Assembly (NCBI RefSeq): GCF_055900595.2
Contig: NZ_CM148325.1
DNA: 64,000 nt
Reading direction: 5' to 3' (one strand)
A program made the position numbers and the translations under genes. Positions within the stretch are counted from its first letter, which is position 1, and each line of letters begins with the position of its first letter. The notes under the pieces are model-generated. The model ran no database searches. It saw only the letters and a program-made list of their open reading frames with translations, and was not told the origin of the DNA. Positions 906 through 55,378 of this stretch are shown piece after piece.

Positions 906-2787
906 ATTCGAAACCACTTTTGCAGATCTGGGCCTGAAGGCTCCTATCCTTGAAGCCCTTAACGATCTGGGTTACGAAAAACCATCTCCAATTCAGGCAG
1001 AGTGTATTCCACATCTGCTGAATGGCCGCGACGTTCTGGGTATGGCCCAGACGGGGAGCGGAAAAACGGCAGCATTCTCTTTACCTCTGCTGCAAAATCT
1101 TGATCCTGAGCTGAAAGCACCACAGATTCTGGTGCTGGCACCGACCCGCGAACTGGCGGTACAGGTTGCTGAGGCAATGACGGATTTCTCTAAACACATG
1201 CGCGGCGTAAACGTGGTTGCCCTGTACGGCGGCCAGCGTTATGACGTGCAATTACGCGCCCTGCGTCAGGGGCCGCAGATCGTTGTCGGTACTCCAGGCC
1301 GTCTGCTGGACCACCTGAAACGTGGCACTCTGGACCTCTCTAAACTGAGCGGTCTGGTTCTGGATGAAGCTGACGAAATGCTGCGCATGGGCTTCATCGA
1401 AGACGTTGAAACCATTATGGCGCAGATCCCGGAAGGTCATCAGACCGCTCTGTTCTCTGCAACTATGCCGGAAGCGATTCGTCGCATTACCCGCCGCTTT
1501 ATGAAAGAGCCGCAGGAAGTACGCATTCAGTCCAGCGTGACTACCCGTCCTGACATCAGCCAGAGCTACTGGACTGTGTGGGGGATGCGTAAAAACGAAG
1601 CGCTGGTACGTTTCCTGGAAGCGGAAGATTTTGATGCGGCGATTATCTTCGTTCGTACTAAAAACGCGACTTTGGAAGTGGCAGAAGCTCTTGAGCGTAA
1701 CGGCTACAACAGCGCTGCACTGAACGGTGACATGAACCAGGCGCTGCGTGAGCAGACTCTGGAACGCCTGAAAGATGGTCGTCTGGATATCCTGATTGCG
1801 ACCGACGTTGCGGCCCGTGGCCTGGACGTTGAGCGTATCAGCCTGGTAGTTAACTACGATATCCCGATGGATTCCGAGTCTTACGTTCACCGTATTGGTC
1901 GTACAGGCCGTGCGGGGCGTGCTGGTCGTGCGCTGCTGTTCGTTGAGAACCGCGAGCGTCGTCTGCTGCGCAACATTGAACGCACTATGAAGCTGACCAT
2001 TCCGGAAGTAGAACTGCCGAACGCAGAGCTGCTGGGCAAACGCCGTCTGGAAAAATTCGCCGCTAAAGTACAGCAGCAGCTGGAAAGCAGCGATCTGGAT
2101 CAATACCGTGCACTGCTGAGCAAAATTCAGCCGACTGCAGAAGGTGAAGAGCTGGATCTCGAAACTCTGGCAGCCGCACTGCTGAAAATGGCACAGGGTG
2201 AACGTACTCTGATCGTGCCGCCAGATGCGCCGATGCGTCCGAAACGTGAATTCCGTGACCGTGATGACCGTGGTCCGCGCGATCGTAACGACCGTGGCCC
2301 GCGTGGCGACCGTGAAGATCGTCCACGTCGTGAACGTCGTGATGTTGGCGATATGCAGCTGTACCGTATTGAAGTGGGCCGCGATGATGGTGTTGAAGTT
2401 CGTCATATCGTTGGCGCGATTGCTAACGAAGGTGACATCAGCAGCCGTTACATCGGTAACATCAAGCTGTTTGCTTCTCACTCCACCATCGAACTGCCGA
2501 AAGGTATGCCGGGTGAAGTGCTGCAACACTTTACGCGTACTCGCATTCTCAACAAGCCGATGAACATGCAGTTACTGGGCGATGCACAGCCGCATACTGG
2601 CGGTGAGCGTCGTGGCGGTGGTCGTGGTTTCGGTGGCGAACGTCGTGAAGGCGGTCGTAACTTCAGCGGTGAACGCCGTGAAGGTGGTCGTGGTGATGGT
2701 CGTCGTTTCAGCGGCGAACGTCGTGAAGGCCGCGCGCCGCGTCGTGATGACTCTACTGGTCGTCGTCGTTTCGGTGGTGATGCGTAA
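898..2787 (+). CDS. deaD: ATP-dependent DEAD-box RNA helicase DeaD/CsdA (629 aa)
   Basis: Helicase motifs in translation: [30 protein letters not shown]; RG/RGG-rich C-terminal tail. Start placed at MAEFETTF (898) rather than the ORF-track ATG at 832. Confidence 0.95.
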
Positions 2788-2810
2788 TTCGCTGACCCGC
2801 AGAACTCTGC

Positions 2811-2828
2811 CGTAAAGTAAAATATACA
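2811..2828. promoter_or_regulatory. Candidate TyrR box (cGTAAA-N6-TaTACA) upstream of mtr
   Basis: Sequence cgtaaagtaaaatataca resembles the TGTAAA-N6-TTTACA TyrR box consensus; mtr is a known TyrR/TrpR-regulated gene. Manual pattern match only. Confidence 0.35.
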
Positions 2829-2858
2829 GCCCCGATTTTAACAATCGGGGCTTTTTTT
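2829..2858 (+). terminator. Rho-independent terminator downstream of deaD
   Basis: Stem gccccgatt / aatcggggc with 5-nt loop followed by TTTTTTT (2852-2858). Confidence 0.75.
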
Positions 2859-2867
2859 CTGTCTTTT

Positions 2868-2885
2868 GTACTCGTGTACTGGTAC
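2868..2885. promoter_or_regulatory. Candidate TrpR operator in the mtr promoter
   Basis: gtACTcGTgtACTgGTAC resembles the trp operator core (ACTAGT-TA-ACTAGT-AC); located about 55-70 bp upstream of the mtr ATG. Confidence 0.45.
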
Positions 2886-2938
2886 AGTGCAATGCATAAC
2901 AACGCAGTCGCACTATTTTTCACTGGAGAGAAGCCCTC

Positions 2939-4183
2939 ATGGCAACACTAACCACCACCCAAACGTCACCGTCGCTGCTTGGCGGCGTGGTGATTATCGG
3001 CGGCACCATTATTGGCGCAGGGATGTTTTCTCTGCCAGTGGTCATGTCCGGGGCGTGGTTCTTCTGGTCAATGGCGGCGCTGATCTTTACCTGGTTCTGT
3101 ATGCTGCATTCCGGCTTGATGATTCTGGAAGCTAACCTGAATTATCGAATCGGTTCGAGTTTTGACACCATAACCAAAGATTTGCTAGGCAAAGGCTGGA
3201 ACGTGGTCAACGGCATTTCCATTGCCTTTGTGCTCTACATCCTGACTTACGCCTATATTTCTGCCAGCGGTTCGATTCTGTATCACACCTTCGCGGAGAT
3301 GTCGCTGAATGTTCCGGCACGAGCTGCAGGTTTTGGTTTTGCGCTACTGGTGGCGTTTGTGGTGTGGTTGAGCACCAAAGCCGTCAGCCGGATGACGGCG
3401 ATTGTGCTTGGGGCGAAAGTTATTACCTTCTTCCTCACTTTCGGCAGTTTGCTGGGGCATGTGCAGCCTGCGACATTGTTTAACGTCGCGGAAAGCAATG
3501 CGTCTTATGCACCGTATCTGTTGATGACCCTACCGTTCTGTCTGGCCTCATTTGGTTATCACGGTAACGTGCCGAGCCTGATGAAGTATTACGGCAAAGA
3601 TCCGAAAACTATCGTGAAATGCCTGGTCTACGGTACGCTGATGGCGCTGGCGCTGTATACCATCTGGTTGCTGGCGACGATGGGCAACATCCCTCGTCCG
3701 GAGTTTATCGGCATCGCCGAGAAGGGCGGTAATATTGATGTGCTGGTACAGGCGTTAAGCGGCGTGCTGAACAGCCGTAGTCTGGATCTGCTGCTGGTCG
3801 TGTTCTCAAACTTTGCGGTAGCGAGTTCGTTCCTCGGTGTTACGCTGGGTTTGTTTGACTATCTGGCAGATCTGTTTGGTTTCGATGACTCGGCTATGGG
3901 CCGCTTGAAAACGGCACTGTTGACCTTCGCACCGCCTGTTGTGGGTGGTTTGCTGTTCCCGAACGGATTCCTGTACGCCATTGGTTATGCTGGCTTAGCG
4001 GCTACCATCTGGGCGGCAATCGTTCCGGCGCTGCTGGCCCGCGCATCGCGTAAACGCTTTGGCAGCCCTAAATTCCGTGTCTGGGGCGGCAAGCCGATGA
4101 TTGCACTGATTCTGGTGTTTGGTGTTGGCAACGCACTGGTGCATATTTTATCGAGCTTTAATTTGCTGCCGGTGTATCAGTAA
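2939..4183 (+). CDS. mtr: Tryptophan-specific permease Mtr (414 aa)
   Basis: Translation matches Mtr as I recall it (aromatic amino acid permease family; paralog of TnaB/TyrP); multi-pass hydrophobic membrane protein. Confidence 0.95.
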
Positions 4184-35553: not shown

Positions 35554-35564
35554 ATTTTAACGAA

Positions 35565-35596
35565 AACCCGCCAGCGTAAACTGGCGGGTTTTTGCT
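35565..35596 (+). terminator. Rho-independent terminator of rnpB
   Basis: cccgccag-cgtaaa-ctggcggg hairpin followed by TTTTT. Confidence 0.7.
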
Positions 35597-35825
35597 TTTG
35601 AGGAGGGTGGTCGGAAAGATGAACGTCTTATCTGGCCTACAAAACAACGAAAATTCAATATATTGCACAGAGGCAATGTAGGCCTGATAAGCGTAGCGCC
35701 TCAGGCAATTTTGTGTTTATCATCAGTCTCGAATCTGCTTCGGCAAGCTTTTACTTTTGGTGCAGACGGAAAGATGAACGAATATCTAAGCTATTAATAA
35801 TAGACTTTGCAAGAAATCATTACAT

Positions 35826-50084: not shown

Positions 50085-50195
<111 letters not shown>

Positions 50196-52142: not shown

Positions 52143-52499
52143 TTAATTTGAACCAAACTTCGGATCGTTTCCGTAACGATTGCTGCCAGAATTGCCTTCT
52201 AAACAGGCAAATACAAACAGAACTAACCAGCCAATGACCGGTACCAGATAGAGAAGCGCCCACGCACCTGAACGGTCAGTATCGTGCAGACGACGAACGC
52301 ACAGAGCAATGACCGGAATGATTGTTGCTGCCAGGTAAATGAGAGAAAGGAATGGAAACTCTAAACCTAAAATCAATTGAATGACATTGATAATAGTGCC
52401 GACGATGGCGTTAATCAGAGTAAACATCCAGTACTCTTTACGACGTGCACGACCAGAGAAACCAACATAATTTTTTAATACGGCTAAATACAACTGCAT
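52143..52499 (-). CDS. yhaI: DUF805 inner-membrane protein YhaI (118 aa)
   Basis: Paralog of YhaH (shared LKNYVGF-GRARRKEYWMF…RRLHDTDRS motifs). Confidence 0.85.
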   Translation of the reverse strand: MQLYLAVLKNYVGFSGRARRKEYWMFTLINAIVGTIINVIQLILGLEFPFLSLIYLAATIIPVIALCVRRLHDTDRSGAWALLYLVPVIGWLVLFVFACLEGNSGSNRYGNDPKFGSN

Positions 52500-52740: not shown

Positions 52741-53106
52741 TTAAGGTTCCAGTTTCGGATCTGGTCCAAAGCGGTTTTCGCCTGGCGTACCTGCCTGGCA
52801 GTTAAAGACGATGATAATCAGCCAGCCGATAAACGGAATTAAGAACAGCAGTGCCCACCACGCCGAGCGGTCGGTGTCGTGCAGGCGGCGGAACTGAACT
52901 GCCCACCATGGTAAAAACACCAGAATACCGTAGATTGTCGTCAGGATGCCTTCGCCACCGGCGCGTTGCCAGCCTAACATTTTATCCAGCAGCCCCAGCA
53001 CGAACGTAAAGATGATGTTGACCAGAATAAACATCCAGTACTCTTTGCGCCGCGCACGGCCCCGGAAACCGACATAATTTTTTAGTACTTTCAGATACCA
53101 GTCCAT
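52741..53106 (-). CDS. yhaH: DUF805 inner-membrane protein YhaH (121 aa)
   Basis: Start at MDWYLKVLKNYV (53106); paralog of YhaI. Confidence 0.85.
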   Translation of the reverse strand: MDWYLKVLKNYVGFRGRARRKEYWMFILVNIIFTFVLGLLDKMLGWQRAGGEGILTTIYGILVFLPWWAVQFRRLHDTDRSAWWALLFLIPFIGWLIIIVFNCQAGTPGENRFGPDPKLEP

Positions 53107-53229
53107 TTTTGCCTCAATTTTGCTCAATCACTTGTTTTTAAAGCAGCAAATTAAGAATAGACGTGAATGAAATGGCAGTAAATATTATCTCGATGAATTA
53201 ATAAGGCGCTGTGAAGGATAAGGGCAAGC

Positions 53230-53352
53230 GCAAAATTGCCAGATGCGCTACGCTTATCTGGACTGCGCGGTCATTGCAACATATTGAATATAAATGTTTT
53301 GTAGGTTTGATAAGGCGTTTACGCCGCATCCGACATGAACAACACGCACTTA
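53230..53352. repeat. Diverged copy of the REP module found upstream of yqjG
   Basis: gcaaaattgccagatgcgctacgcttatctgg…attgaatataaatgttttgtaggtttgataaggcgtttacgccgcatccgacatgaacaacacgcactt aligns by eye with the 54397-54780 repeat units. Confidence 0.55.
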
Positions 53353-53388
53353 GCTAATTATCAGAGGCACCTCGTAAGGTGCCTTTTT

Positions 53389-54375
53389 TTAACCGAAGCG
53401 AACATCTCGTCCATGCGGTTCATCGAGATCCTGCCACGGACCAATTGAAATAATCCCCGTAGGGTTGATGGTCTTATGGCTGCGGAAGTAATGATTACGG
53501 ATGTGATCGAAATTGACGGTTTCGGCAATTCCCGGCATCTGGTAGATATCGCGCAGGAAGCCATACAGATTCAGGTAATCGCTGATGCGGTGCTTATCAC
53601 ACTTGAAGTGGGTCACATACACTGGATCAAAACGCACCAGCGTGGTCCACAGGCGAATATCGGCTTCGGTTAGCTGGTTGCCGGTCAGGTAACGGTGCTG
53701 ACCTAAAATCTGTTCCAGTCGCGCCAGCGATTCAAACACTTTCGCCACCGCCTCGTCGTAGGCTTGCTGGCTGGTGGCAAAACCGGCTTTATACACGCCA
53801 TTGTTAACGGTGTCGTAAATCCAGCCATTAAGTTCGTCAATTTTCGTTTGCAGGGCTGAAGGGTAGTAATCTCCAGCTTTCGCACCCAGCGCATCAAACG
53901 CGGTATTAAACATGCGGATGATTTCCGCTGATTCGTTGCTGACAATGGTGTGGTTCTTCTTGTCCCAGAGTACGGGAACAGTAACTCGTCCGCTGTAGTG
54001 TGGATCGGCGTGGAGATAAAGCTGATACAGAAATTCATGTTGATAGAGCGTATCGCCGGTTGCTCCCGGAAAACTGTCATCAAAGGTCCAGCCGTTTTCC
54101 AGCATTAACGGGTTCACTACGGAAACGGAAATAAACGGTTCCAGCCCTTTGAGTTTACGCATGATCAGCGTGCGGTGCGCCCACGGGCAGGCGAGTGAAA
54201 CATAGAGATGATAACGATCTTTCTCTGCGGCAAAACCGCCTTTGCCAGTGGGGCCTGGCGCGCCATCGGCAGTGAGCCAGTTACGAAATGCGGAAGCTGA
54301 ACGTTGAAATTTACCGCCGGTGGATTTGGTGTCGTACCAGGTGTCATGCCAGACGCCGTCAATCAGTTGACCCAT
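53389..54375 (-). CDS. yqjG: Glutathionyl-hydroquinone reductase YqjG (Xi-class GST; 328 aa)
   Basis: Start at MGQLIDGVWHD (54375) with GGAGGAGAG SD; the ORF-track 448-aa version is an artefactual upstream extension through the tandem repeats. Confidence 0.9.
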   Translation of the reverse strand: MGQLIDGVWHDTWYDTKSTGGKFQRSASAFRNWLTADGAPGPTGKGGFAAEKDRYHLYVSLACPWAHRTLIMRKLKGLEPFISVSVVNPLMLENGWTFDDSFPGATGDTLYQHEFLYQLYLHADPHYSGRVTVPVLWDKKNHTIVSNESAEIIRMFNTAFDALGAKAGDYYPSALQTKIDELNGWIYDTVNNGVYKAGFATSQQAYDEAVAKVFESLARLEQILGQHRYLTGNQLTEADIRLWTTLVRFDPVYVTHFKCDKHRISDYLNLYGFLRDIYQMPGIAETVNFDHIRNHYFRSHKTINPTGIISIGPWQDLDEPHGRDVRFG

Positions 54376-54396
54376 TTTTCTCTCCTCCAATAGCAA

Positions 54397-54780
54397 AAAC
54401 GAGGAGCGTTTCTCCTCGTTTGAGACTGATGGCAAACGCAAAACTGCCTGATGCGCTATGCTTATCAGGCCTACGAGGTTTCTGCAATGTATTGAATTTG
54501 CATGTTTTTGTAGGCCGGATAAGGCGTTCACGCCGCATCCGGCATGAACAACGTGCACTTTGTCAACAATCTGAAACGAGGAGCGTTTCTCCTCGTTTGA
54601 GACTGATGGCAAACGCAAAACTGCCTGATGCGCTATGCTTATCAGGCCTACGAGGTTTCTGCAACGTATTGAATTTGCATGTTTTTGTAGGCCGGACAAG
54701 GCGTTCACGCCGCATCCGGCATGAACAACGCGCACTTTGTCAACAATCTGAAACGAGGAGTGTTCCCCCTCGTTTTTTAT
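54397..54780. repeat. Tandem array (about 2.2 copies) of a 177-bp composite unit: perfect hairpin plus REP pair
   Basis: Units begin at 54397, 54574 and 54751 (partial); each carries aaacgaggagcgtttctcctcgttt followed by REP units (gcctgatgcgctatgcttatcaggcctac…gtaggccggataaggcgttcacgccgcatccggca); the two full copies differ at 3 positions. Confidence 0.8.
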
Positions 54781-54799
54781 CGTTAAGTATAGCGCGTAC

Positions 54800-55192
54800 T
54801 TACCACTTTTTATTCAACAGACGGTCGATGCTATACGCGCCCGGACCGGTAATCGCCAGCAGCAGGAATCCGCCAGAAATAGTCAGGTTTTTCATAAACA
54901 TCAGCGAGTTCATGCCTTCTGCAAAATTGCTGTGAAATAAAAATGCCGTCAGCAGCGTAAAGCCCGCAGTAAACAGGGCAGTGGTACGTGTCAGGAAACC
55001 AAACAGGATTGCCAGACCACCACCAAACTCAAGCAGAATCACCAGTGGCAGCATAAAGCCTGGGACACCCATCGCTTCCATATATTGTTGCGTACCCGCG
55101 TAGCCAGTAATTTTTCCCCAACCTGCCGTAATAAACAGAATCGGCATTAAAATGCGTGCGACCAGTACCCCAACATCTTCTAATTTTTTCAT
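54800..55192 (-). CDS. yqjF: DoxX-family inner-membrane protein YqjF (130 aa)
   Basis: Start at MKKLEDVGVL (55192); ORF track extends to 55282. Confidence 0.85.
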   Translation of the reverse strand: MKKLEDVGVLVARILMPILFITAGWGKITGYAGTQQYMEAMGVPGFMLPLVILLEFGGGLAILFGFLTRTTALFTAGFTLLTAFLFHSNFAEGMNSLMFMKNLTISGGFLLLAITGPGAYSIDRLLNKKW

Positions 55193-55378
55193 CTTACTCT
55201 CCACTGCGCCGCTCAGGCTGCTGATTGTTTTTTTGTGCAAGGGCGCGGTATTAGCGTCGTTGCTTTCGATGGAGAGAATCATAAACGTGGCGAAGCGTGA
55301 TTGTTAGCAAGGAAAACTGTCAAATATTTTCAAAAAATTTGAGGAATAAGGCCGGAATGTCTCCGGCCAGAGAGGAAG

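Follow-up and report, generated by a model that had tools for sequence, protein, structure and literature searches.

A BIME-1 element doubled in tandem, together with the native intergenic hairpin, between yqjF and yqjG of Escherichia coli

BIME-1 elements (RIP/RIB) were described by Gilson, Bachellier and Hofnung, by Oppenheim (1993) and by Boccard and Prentki (1993), and their features are summarised in PMC3333891. They are composed of a y-type and a z1-type REP in inverted orientation, set head to head on either side of a long, conserved L linker that contains an IHF-type site, they lie at the 3' ends of transcription units, and they have conserved outer motifs and a presence that varies by strain. 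BIME-2 and atypical BIME arrays instead combine y and z2 REPs with short S linkers and s, l or r spacers, bind gyrase strongly and lack an IHF site. In the REPIN/RAYT description (Bertels and Rainey 2011, PMC3116915), the REP doublet is the replicative unit and is accompanied by a single-copy RAYT gene in the genome, and in P. fluorescens tandem REPIN clusters can take in flanking sequence (PMC3116915). The mechanism by which REP and BIME sequences are disseminated has been stated to be unresolved (PMC3333891, 2011; PMC8266576, 2021), and RayT, with chemistry of the IS200/IS605 HUH type, gives no target duplication (PMC3333891).

The array described here occupies the spacer between yqjF and yqjG in a 64-kb stretch of DNA, which we call the window. 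Both genes are encoded on the minus strand. The yqjG gene (53389-54375), for a glutathionyl-hydroquinone reductase of 328 aa, is supported by the open reading frame list, by the K-12 annotation and by the RefSeq record of a genome that is 100% identical over this region, and yqjF (54800-55192; DoxX family, 130 aa) is taken from the RefSeq annotation of identical and related genomes. The spacer measures 424 bp, or approximately 69 + 2 x 177, and the array lies 24 nt 3' of the yqjF stop codon, inside a terminator-like hairpin. Tandem Repeats Finder places it at 54397-54775 with a period of 177, 2.1 copies, 97% matches and a score of 716, and a repeat search and direct reading agree that the full copies (54397-54573 and 54574-54750) are 98% identical and differ by three substitutions (AATG/AACG, GGATAAGG/GGACAAGG and AACGTGC/AACGCGC). 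These values bear out the preliminary description of this DNA, in which a 177-bp tandem unit of hairpin plus REP pair, with three substitutions, had been read in about 2.2 copies.

Three hairpins and two elements alternate along the array. The 25-nt hairpin AAACGAGGAGCGTTTCTCCTCGTTT is perfect, as first reported, at 54397-54421 (H1) and 54574-54598 (H2), and identity falls to 88% in the third copy (54751-54775), whose stem contains an A.C mismatch. H1 reads AAACGAGGAG-CGTTT-CTCCTCGTTT, carries an A-run on the plus strand, adjoins the yqjG ribosome-binding site on its upstream side and is homologous to the single hairpin of alleles that lack the element. H2 is identical to H1 and constitutes the junction made by the tandem duplication. 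H3 (54751-54778, with its tail) reads AAACGAGGAG-TGTTC-CCCCTCGTTT, is followed by a T-run on the plus strand and represents the right-hand copy of the duplicated target. Between the hairpins lie two 152-bp elements, copy 1 at 54422-54573 and copy 2 at 54599-54750, such that each 177-bp unit consists of a complete BIME-1 and one 25-bp copy of the hairpin native to the yqjF-yqjG spacer. The hairpin and REP pair had been described as one module, and they have indeed been duplicated together, but the hairpin stands outside the repeat family: it is the native intergenic hairpin, which is single in empty alleles.

Judged by its sequence, the REP pair is a complete BIME-1 (RIP/RIB; a REPIN): it contains an IHF-like site, and its ends are conserved. 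Two REPs are inverted head to head (CTAC ... GTAG), namely TGCCTGATGCGCTATGCTTATCAGGCCTAC at 54445-54474, which ends in CTAC, and GTAGGCCGGATAAGGCGTTCACGCCGCATCCGGCA at 54510-54544, which begins with GTAG; the same pair recurs in copy 2 at 54622-54651 and 54687-54721. The short left-hand REP is presumably of the z1 type, by comparison with the published consensus. The REP on the right shares 30 of 32 positions with the one crystallised with RayT (PMC3479197), and by our reading of PMC3333891 the crystallised sequence is the y REP of the REPtron. The L linker (54475-54509 in copy 1, 54652-54686 in copy 2) is 35 bp long, is conserved across loci (TGCAATnTATTGAATTTGCA...) and contains a putative IHF site on the minus strand, ATTCAATACATTG at 54485-54497 in copy 1, with one mismatch to WATCAANNNNTTR, and ATTCAATACGTTG at 54662-54674 in copy 2. 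The mobile unit reaches past the REPs to imperfect inverted end motifs of approximately 15 bp (GAGACTGATGGCAAA... at one end of copy 1 and ...TTTGTCAACAATCTG at the other), and the ends of the insert coincide with the BIME-1 ends at uspB-pitA, entD-fepA and yhaC-rnpB and with those of at least 48 full-length BIME-1 copies in other genomes. Like described BIME-1 elements, this one has two REPs, probably of the y and z1 types, inverted across an L linker with an IHF-like site; it has conserved outer motifs, varies by strain and lies between genes, where a transcription unit (yqjF) ends.

Unlike them, it is doubled in tandem together with a copy of its target hairpin, whereas BIME-1 is said to occur as single copies (PMC3333891). 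We nevertheless file the unit as BIME-1, because one copy per locus is a usual arrangement of the element rather than a property of its sequence. In being head-to-tail and strain-variable in copy number the array resembles those of BIME-2, although its spacer is a locus-specific terminator hairpin. The best matches to the 152-bp insert elsewhere are only approximately 88-93% identical, and with no donor found we rejected recent copying from another locus of the genome. Among Rfam families, only sub-threshold matches to naRNA4 (REP-derived) and a marginal match of ES036 to the L linker were returned, and thus no informative RNA family.

We counted alleles in 5,426 complete E. coli genomes, a comparison that the preliminary description had proposed when it suggested a strain-variable copy number, and this suggestion proved correct. 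About 98.4% of complete genomes have no copy, 1.4% have one and 0.18% have two; the 89 filled yqjF-yqjG alleles comprise 78-79 with one copy, 10 with two and none with three. A 62-nt query across the H2 junction is fully matched in only 10 of the 5,426 genomes, and because each of these ten has three junction places, each carries exactly two copies. Recovery of the two-copy form in ten independent complete genomes also means that the array is not an assembly artefact.

The empty allele, as sampled in K-12 and in further genomes, is a 69-bp spacer that contains a single hairpin, which in K-12 is AAAAACGAGGAG-CTTC-CTCCTCGTTTTTT. Three of them read base by base (K-12, strain Z30) have the same 24-nt hairpin with the CTTC loop, and the remaining sampled empty alleles have the same overall length. 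One-copy alleles have the form hairpin(CGTTT)-BIME-hairpin(TGTTC), and filled E. coli alleles carry 5-nt loops in both hairpin copies. Since the loops of these filled alleles have 5 nt and the empty loops read have 4, the loop changes must have followed or accompanied insertion. We also considered that an empty allele whose loop has 5 nt (CGTTC) might exist outside the sample, from which single C-to-T changes would generate both filled loops. However, a synthetic 135-nt query with this loop had no exact match among 5,422 matching genomes, and the best match (99.3%, span 134) is the K-12-type 4-nt loop, which leaves such an allele unsupported.

The duplication had also been called recent, and this stands in a relative sense only: the doubling is common to two sub-lineages whose flanks have diverged by approximately 0.9% and which share the same derived T in copy 1. 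The insertion itself is old. Its orthologue, in one copy, occurs in Escherichia sp. E1V33, which belongs to a cryptic lineage of the genus and in which the BIME is 97.4% identical to that of the E. coli one-copy allele, compared to at most 92.9% for other loci.

Duplication of the hairpin extends to other BIME-1 loci. Both alleles were recovered at yqjF-yqjG, uspB-pitA, yhaJ-yhaH and uvrB-yvcK, and at all four the empty allele has one hairpin and the filled allele has two, placed around the element. A survey of full-length BIME-1 copies, chosen for intact L linkers and intact ends, yielded at least 36 independent loci in species of Escherichia and Pseudocitrobacter. Compared to 1,260 mismatched-flank controls, the flanking direct repeats are at or beyond the 99th percentile for 22 of 36 loci among the matches listed and above the control maximum for 14 of the 36 listed (Mann-Whitney p = 8e-12). 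At the listed loci these repeats begin 0-2 nt from the element, are 13-29 bp long and correspond to whole stem-loops. A stable hairpin abuts at least one end of the element at 28 of 36 loci among the matches listed, compared to 5 of 135 control windows. The 14 of 36 listed loci that lack a significant flanking repeat could reflect decay or a second mode of insertion.

At uspB-pitA, the same asymmetric C.A stem mismatch is kept in both hairpin copies, and therefore both arms were copied in direct order. This shared mismatch rules out a scheme wherein the element enters the hairpin loop and the two halves are healed by folding back. Escherichia sp. E1V33 carries, at another locus, a hairpin-BIME-hairpin-BIME-hairpin arrangement with a period of 169. 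No description of a hairpin or terminator duplication flanking a BIME or REPIN was found in the full-text literature searched, and Bachellier 1997, Boccard and Prentki 1993 and Gilson 1991 may already note it.

These observations establish the structure of the array, its polymorphism and the duplication of the hairpin, and they lead us to propose, with a probability of roughly 0.8, that a BIME-1 inserted at the yqjF hairpin, that the hairpin was duplicated in the process, and that tandem doubling then occurred via the hairpin repeats. In the first step, one BIME-1 would insert at the intrinsic-terminator-like hairpin 3' of yqjF and duplicate the whole 24-25-bp hairpin to yield hairpin-BIME-hairpin, the left copy retaining the A-run and the right copy the T-run. 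Cutting or joining of the two strands may take place at opposite hairpin feet, or at those of an extruded cruciform, with a stagger equal to the hairpin length and with both gaps filled by repair synthesis. In the second step, the resulting 25-bp direct repeats would support unequal crossing-over or replication slippage to give hairpin-BIME-hairpin-BIME-hairpin with a period of 177 bp. Such exchange or slippage between the flanking hairpin repeats is the most likely route of doubling, and H2 is identical to H1, as expected for an exchange in the first 10 nt of the repeat.

Perhaps the filled allele is instead ancestral for the genus, in which case most E. coli would have lost the element by precise excision, through recombination between the hairpin copies, and the window would retain and amplify an old state. 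The orthologous insertion in E1V33 fits this history, 25-bp direct repeats are a plausible deletion substrate, and whole BIME-1 excisions were reportedly described by Bachellier et al. in 1997. Yet deletion between hairpins with diverged loops (CGTTT/TGTTC or CGGTT/TTTC) should leave 5-nt or otherwise different loops, whereas the empty alleles read, from K-12 and Z30, share the 24-nt hairpin with its CTTC loop, and approximately 98% of complete genomes are empty. We consider ancestral presence followed by widespread loss to be unlikely; the allele frequencies suggest that the direction of change was a gain.

RayT would be the usual suspect for the enzyme. The preliminary description had advised looking for a REP-associated transposase elsewhere in this genome. 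An intact, annotated rayT is carried by strain Z0117EC0005, whose sequence agrees with the window over 1.4 kb at 100% identity; the gene lies outside the 64-kb window. The gene is detected in 3,574 of the 5,426 genomes. An intact rayT in the carrier also permits a different account of the doubling, as local amplification mediated by RayT through cleavage and rejoining at REP-proximal CT sites, as proposed for BIME-2 arrays, rather than as homologous exchange between the hairpin repeats. RayT cleaves between C and T, and Ton-Hoang et al. propose that transposition or recombination is followed by local BIME amplification (PMC3333891). However, a BIME-1 and a whole hairpin together account exactly for the 177-bp period, H1 is reproduced cleanly and base for base at the new junction, no breakpoint adjoins a REP, and the element type is the one said to occur singly (PMC3333891), so we regard this account as improbable compared to exchange or slippage between the hairpin repeats.

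On the coding (minus) strand, a terminator scan flags H1 (54421-54397) as terminator-like, with a 10-bp stem, a 5-nt loop and then TTTTTGC, the TTTTT being present because H1 keeps the plus-strand A-run. H2 and H3 are followed by TTTCAG on this strand and were left unflagged by the scan. H1 thus displays the G+C-containing stem-loop and T-run of an intrinsic terminator and is a predicted terminator of the coding strand. A terminator-like structure had previously been read on the plus strand in the last copy, even though no plus-strand gene ends there. The hairpin and T-run do exist in this right-hand copy, but they are half of a bidirectional-looking A-tract/hairpin/T-tract that was split by the insertion, and the copy that is terminator-like on the coding strand is the left-hand H1. 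With the original tract split and the minus strand read at H1, the puzzle vanishes. A literature search for yqjF-yqjG co-transcription returned only papers on YhaJ and yqjF-promoter biosensors.

It is doubtful that the array is a selected regulatory module, tuning read-through from yqjF to yqjG or stabilising yqjF mRNA while paired IHF sites shape the local DNA, since a strong fold is inherent in palindromic repeats, even though that of the entire coding-strand intergenic RNA is far better than the fold of shuffled controls (-176.8 kcal/mol, z = -10.2), and since the array is rare (1.6% of genomes filled, 0.18% doubled), with no sign of a sweep and with substitutions accumulating in its copies, notwithstanding a terminator-like hairpin directly before the yqjG ribosome-binding site and the effects on mRNA stability, attenuation and IHF binding established for the REP/BIME family (PMC3333891; PMC2817692). 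The array could equally be near-neutral selfish DNA. The roles suggested earlier for such modules, as terminators, mRNA stabilisers or recombination hotspots, are known for the family and would be candidates here. By analogy to the family, its likely consequences would include extra stem-loops in the yqjF-yqjG RNA, which may cause attenuation or protect the 3' end of yqjF, and two putative IHF sites 177 bp apart. The locus itself is ordinary, being a known kind of element with a strain-variable insertion and a tandem doubling. Situated between two non-essential genes, it can serve as a typing marker and offers a natural series of zero, one and two copies in which the effects of BIME-1 on read-through and mRNA stability can be measured.

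More tentatively, BIME-1 elements may generally spread by structure-directed insertion that targets terminator-type hairpins, with the entire stem-loop duplicated and the length of the duplication set by the hairpin and not by the enzyme. The REP doublet and the single-copy RAYT gene are shared with the REPIN model, but single-strand transposition of the IS200/IS605 kind predicts no target duplication, and here the target is, as a rule, duplicated over the length of the hairpin. MITEs, for example ERIC and Correia elements, are similarly small, non-coding and intergenic, with terminal inverted repeats, target duplication and presence/absence polymorphism. Their target duplications, however, are short and of fixed length (e.g. 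TA), whereas those of BIME-1 span 13-29 bp and track the length of the target stem-loop, and we know of no matching DDE transposase for BIME-1. Class C group II introns, IS1397 and the IS110-family elements found in REPs likewise choose sites by DNA secondary structure at gene ends, but they insert beside or inside a hairpin with no duplication or one of only 3-4 bp, and none of them, to our knowledge, duplicates an entire stem-loop.

If this is true, BIME-1 insertion would leave a footprint of a new kind, which would place a first concrete constraint on how REP/BIME sequences disseminate, and it would explain the 3'-end location, precise loss and tandem amplification of BIME-1. A hairpin-duplication footprint across loci and species makes this decades-old question testable, as it predicts the target (terminator hairpins or cruciforms), the geometry of cutting (opposite hairpin feet) and two by-products, precise excision and tandem amplification via the flanking repeats.

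REP modules that are homologous to each other flank yqjG on both sides, as first noted. The diverged copy beyond yqjG aligns at 53223-53351 (81.5% over 130 bp) and belongs to an older, decaying BIME-1 between yqjG and yhaH (53214-53365), which has an IHF-like site at 53277-53289 and is also full length (153 bp) in K-12. Adjoining its right end, and overlapping the yqjG stop codon, is a hairpin read from the sequence as GGCACCTCGTAAGGTGCC followed by T7 (53366-53390); to the left of this element, the best alignment to the GGCACC hairpin scores 6.5, short of the control 99th percentile of 9, and does not support a further copy there. The relative that had been noted near 50.1 kb is confirmed at 50114-50194 (85.7% over 84 bp), within a REP pair (50090-50194) that resembles a BIME and is located between yhaM and yhaL, two convergent genes; its linker has diverged, and the end motifs of BIME-1 are missing. 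A fourth relative, which is truncated, lies at 35620-35730.

The spacer between yqjF (54800-55192) and yqjG (53389-54375), both on the minus strand of the window, which runs antiparallel to K-12 coordinates, is occupied by a repeat array, such that the transcription order, if any, is yqjF, array, yqjG. Tandem Repeats Finder reports a single array at 54397-54775 (period 177, 2.1 copies, 97% matches, score 716), in agreement with the tandem duplication proposed in the preliminary description. The two full copies (54397-54573 and 54574-54750) are 98% identical in a repeat search of the window, and direct reading finds differences at three positions, as had been counted by eye. In the same search the 25-nt hairpin recurs every 177 bp as H1 (54397-54421), H2 (54574-54598) and H3 (54751-54775), which score 100%, 100% and 88% identity, respectively. 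Two relatives suspected earlier are also real: a diverged one across yqjG (53223-53351; 81.5% over 130 bp), the other close to 50.1 kb (50114-50194; 85.7% over 84 bp). A fourth, truncated relative lies at 35620-35730.

The 177-bp unit had been read as a repeat that includes its hairpin, but the hairpin belongs to the target. A single hairpin, AAAAACGAGGAG-CTTC-CTCCTCGTTTTTT, bordered by an A-run and a T-run on opposite sides, is already present in the empty, 69-bp spacer of K-12. One-copy alleles from other strains carry a left hairpin (...AAAAACGAGGAG-CGTTT-CTCCTCGTTT), then a 152-bp insert that starts GAGACTG... and ends ...CAATCTG, and then a right hairpin (AAACGAGGAG-TGTTC-C(T/C)CCTCGTTTTTT...). 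The unit therefore combines the 152-bp insert with an additional copy of the native hairpin, and the window spacer measures 424 bp, or about 69 + 2x177.

Over its full length, the insert can be aligned with the repeats found at uspB-pitA, entD-fepA and yhaC-rnpB. In order, the outer motif GAGACTGATGGCAAACGCAAAAC is followed by a short inverted REP that closes with CTAC, a linker of 35 bp (TGCAATnTATTGAATTTGCA...), a REP that opens with GTAG and a second outer motif, ATGAACAACGCGCACTTTGTCAACAATCTGA; the two outer motifs are imperfect inverted repeats of each other over roughly 15 bp. The linker of each copy contains an IHF-like site, ATTCAATACATTG, with one mismatch to the consensus WATCAANNNNTTR, and the GTAG REP matches at 30 of 32 positions the REP co-crystallised with the REP-associated enzyme RayT (PMC3479197). 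In the published account, a BIME-1 element has a y REP and a z1 REP with a long, conserved L linker between them that carries an IHF site (PMC3333891). The insert matches this architecture, its REPs being putatively of y and z1 type, and its sequence places it in BIME-1 (RIP/RIB; a REPIN). Rfam family ES036 (CssrF sRNA) matches the L linker on the minus strand at 54467-54507 and 54644-54684, the first match barely exceeding the gathering score (38.4 versus 37.6 bits), a hint that the model of this family essentially represents part of the BIME-1 repeat. At 35560-35790 (minus strand), a BIME-1 is cut off inside its y REP, and the presence of CGTTCATCTTTCCG..CACC..AAAAG on either side suggests a deletion or duplication at the break.

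The preliminary description also remarked on a plus-strand hairpin and T-run where no plus-strand gene ends. The hairpin and T-run are indeed seen at the right copy, but the predicted terminator is oriented along the minus strand. This arrangement arises because the native hairpin has both an A-run and a T-run, which the insertion splits, leaving the A-run at the left hairpin copy and the T-run at the right. On the coding strand of yqjF and yqjG, the left copy (54421-54397) is followed by TTTTTGC and is the sole copy flagged in a terminator scan, and this predicted terminator closely precedes the yqjG ribosome-binding site; on that strand, TTTCAG follows H2 and H3. The whole spacer RNA has a predicted fold of -176.8 kcal/mol (z = -10.2), as expected for a stack of palindromes. 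Overall, the original observation stands and its interpretation holds in part, with the hairpin now assigned to the target, the predicted terminator to the minus strand and the module to BIME-1.

Both filled (with BIME-1) and empty alleles were recovered at four loci, namely yqjF-yqjG and three more that are polymorphic, and at all four a single hairpin in the empty allele corresponds to a pair around the element in the filled allele. The empty-allele hairpin is AGCGGGCCAGTAAACTGACCCGCTC at uspB-pitA (L008/L012/L013 among the genome stretches fetched for comparison; 1,939 genomes filled), AAGCACCTTTTACAAGGTGCTT at yhaJ-yhaH (L075/L134; 2 filled) and AAGCCGGAATATTCTTCCGGCTT at uvrB-yvcK (L082/L135; 3,677 filled), with the hairpin on both sides in the filled alleles of the latter two. 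In the filled uspB-pitA allele, the right hairpin is without its TAAA loop and a C.A mismatch is kept in both copies. Within the window, a 96-bp direct repeat (52404-52499 versus 53011-53106; 77% identical) spans the 5' ends of the adjacent paralogues yhaI and yhaH (DUF805); some E. coli lineages have a single DUF805 gene beside yhaJ, and BIME-1 is there in two genomes.

A survey with the BIME-1 core pattern, using one representative genome per species, returned at least 120 loci (L014-L133); among the matches listed, 48 full-length elements had usable flanks and represent 36 independent loci. At these 36 listed loci, the local direct-repeat score of an element's left flank against its own right flank averages 11.7, compared with 5.5 for 1,260 mismatched flank pairs (Mann-Whitney p = 8e-12); 22 of the 36 score at or above the 99th percentile of the controls, and 14 score higher than any control. 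The repeats in these matches begin 0-2 nt from the element, are 13-29 bp long and comprise whole stem-loops, usually with an A-run ahead of the left copy and a T-run behind the right. The adjoining 30 nt fold at -10 kcal/mol or below on at least one side at 28 of the 36 listed loci (both sides at 15), as do only 5 of 135 control windows (p = 2e-12). Thus, a whole terminator-like hairpin is generally found directly duplicated around BIME-1.

Among the matches listed, paired hairpin copies differ chiefly in their loops, including apparent inversions (TAAA/TTTA, AA/TT). Loop differences occur at L032, L052 versus L064, L017 and L028, and in the window between 54397-54421 and 54751-54775; L028 also has one compensatory stem change, T-A to C-G. 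Filled E. coli yqjF-yqjG alleles have 5-nt loops in both copies. The loop is 4 nt in all empty alleles read base by base, and the overall length of the remaining sampled empties matches this form. Full or near-full BIME-1 elements also appear on contigs labelled as a Bacteroides MAG (L037), Desulfosporosinus sp. OT (L071, 262 bp) and Methylobacterium frigidaeris (L092, 261 bp), most likely through enterobacterial contamination of these assemblies.

Since the duplication length follows the stem-loop and is not fixed, the data suggest a geometry in which one strand would be cut or joined at one foot of the hairpin and the second strand at the opposite foot. The substrate could be an extruded cruciform or single-stranded hairpins at a replication fork, and two hairpin-length single-stranded gaps would then be filled by repair synthesis. 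Loop insertion healed by fold-back synthesis is excluded by the stem asymmetry retained at uspB-pitA. The obvious candidate enzyme is RayT, which binds a REP of the type found in the insert (PMC3479197). The rayT gene is intact in strain Z0117EC0005 (L139:16463-19106), whose genome is identical to the window over 1.4 kb, and is present in only 3,574 of 5,426 complete genomes. However, the known single-strand chemistry of RayT predicts no target duplication (PMC3333891), and we therefore do not settle on it; how REPs and BIMEs disseminate has been stated to be unknown (PMC3333891; PMC8266576). In Z0117EC0005, remnants of IS3-family and IS110-family transposases directly follow rayT.

The doubling probably arose by unequal exchange or slippage between the 25-bp direct repeats that flank the element in a one-copy allele. 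Such an event would give a period of 152 + 25, exactly as observed, and the middle hairpin would match H1 exactly if the switch fell inside the first 10 nt. In P. fluorescens, REPINs have been reported to form tandem clusters "including the flanking sequences" (PMC3116915). The hairpin-BIME-hairpin-BIME-hairpin layout seen at yqjF-yqjG in the window recurs, with a period of 169, at a different locus in Escherichia sp. E1V33, and further tandem BIME-1 arrays are found in Escherichia sp. MOD1-EC7003. The arrays seen in cryptic Escherichia lie at L118:7860-8260, L129 (minus strand, 0-720) and L131 (minus strand, 2700-3040): one has the hairpin-flanked layout with period 169, another has three copies with a 7-bp spacer, GCCGCCT (period 160), and the remaining one has a period of 130.

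Copy number at yqjF-yqjG is strain-variable, as had been anticipated, with 0, 1 or 2 copies among complete E. coli genomes. The site is filled in 89 of 5,426, with two copies in 10 (middle junction present, three junction places each), one copy in 78-79, including strain SMS-3-5, and three copies in none of the 5,426; all other sampled genomes are empty (spans of 1040/1046 versus 1401). These numbers are fixed by the total of 187 junction places, which equals 10x3 + 78x2 + 1. A derived AACGTGC in copy 1 is common to N96, RMDEC465 and the window lineage, which later acquired two further substitutions in copy 2, and by this sequence evidence the doubling has a single origin. The duplication, first proposed to be recent, is not brand new, since the flanks of two-copy sub-lineages differ by about 0.9% and the doubling must therefore have been inherited.

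The insertion itself is old, or else was exchanged between lineages, because E1V33, of a cryptic lineage, carries an orthologous one-copy BIME-1 in its yqjF-yqjG hairpin (L116:7640-7960; loops CGGTT and TTTC). This element is 97.4% identical to that of E. coli, compared with at most 92.9% (median 88%) for BIME-1 elements from other loci. The same 2-kb stretch of E1V33 holds two further BIME-1-like elements.

It is already known that entire BIME-1 elements can be present or absent and that BIMEs vary in copy number, and BIME-1 has been described as single-copy (PMC3333891), whereas the window has two tandem copies. The yqjF-yqjG locus fits this known kind, is unsurprising by itself and is alone of low to moderate interest; the general hairpin footprint lifts the overall interest to moderate. 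A full-text literature search found no description of whole-hairpin flanking duplication, although classical papers may contain one. The yqjF-yqjG region of the window (53900-55300) shares only about 94.7% identity with K-12 and 90-95% with most E. coli; such divergence is high for a core region and may stem from an old class of alleles or from recombination.
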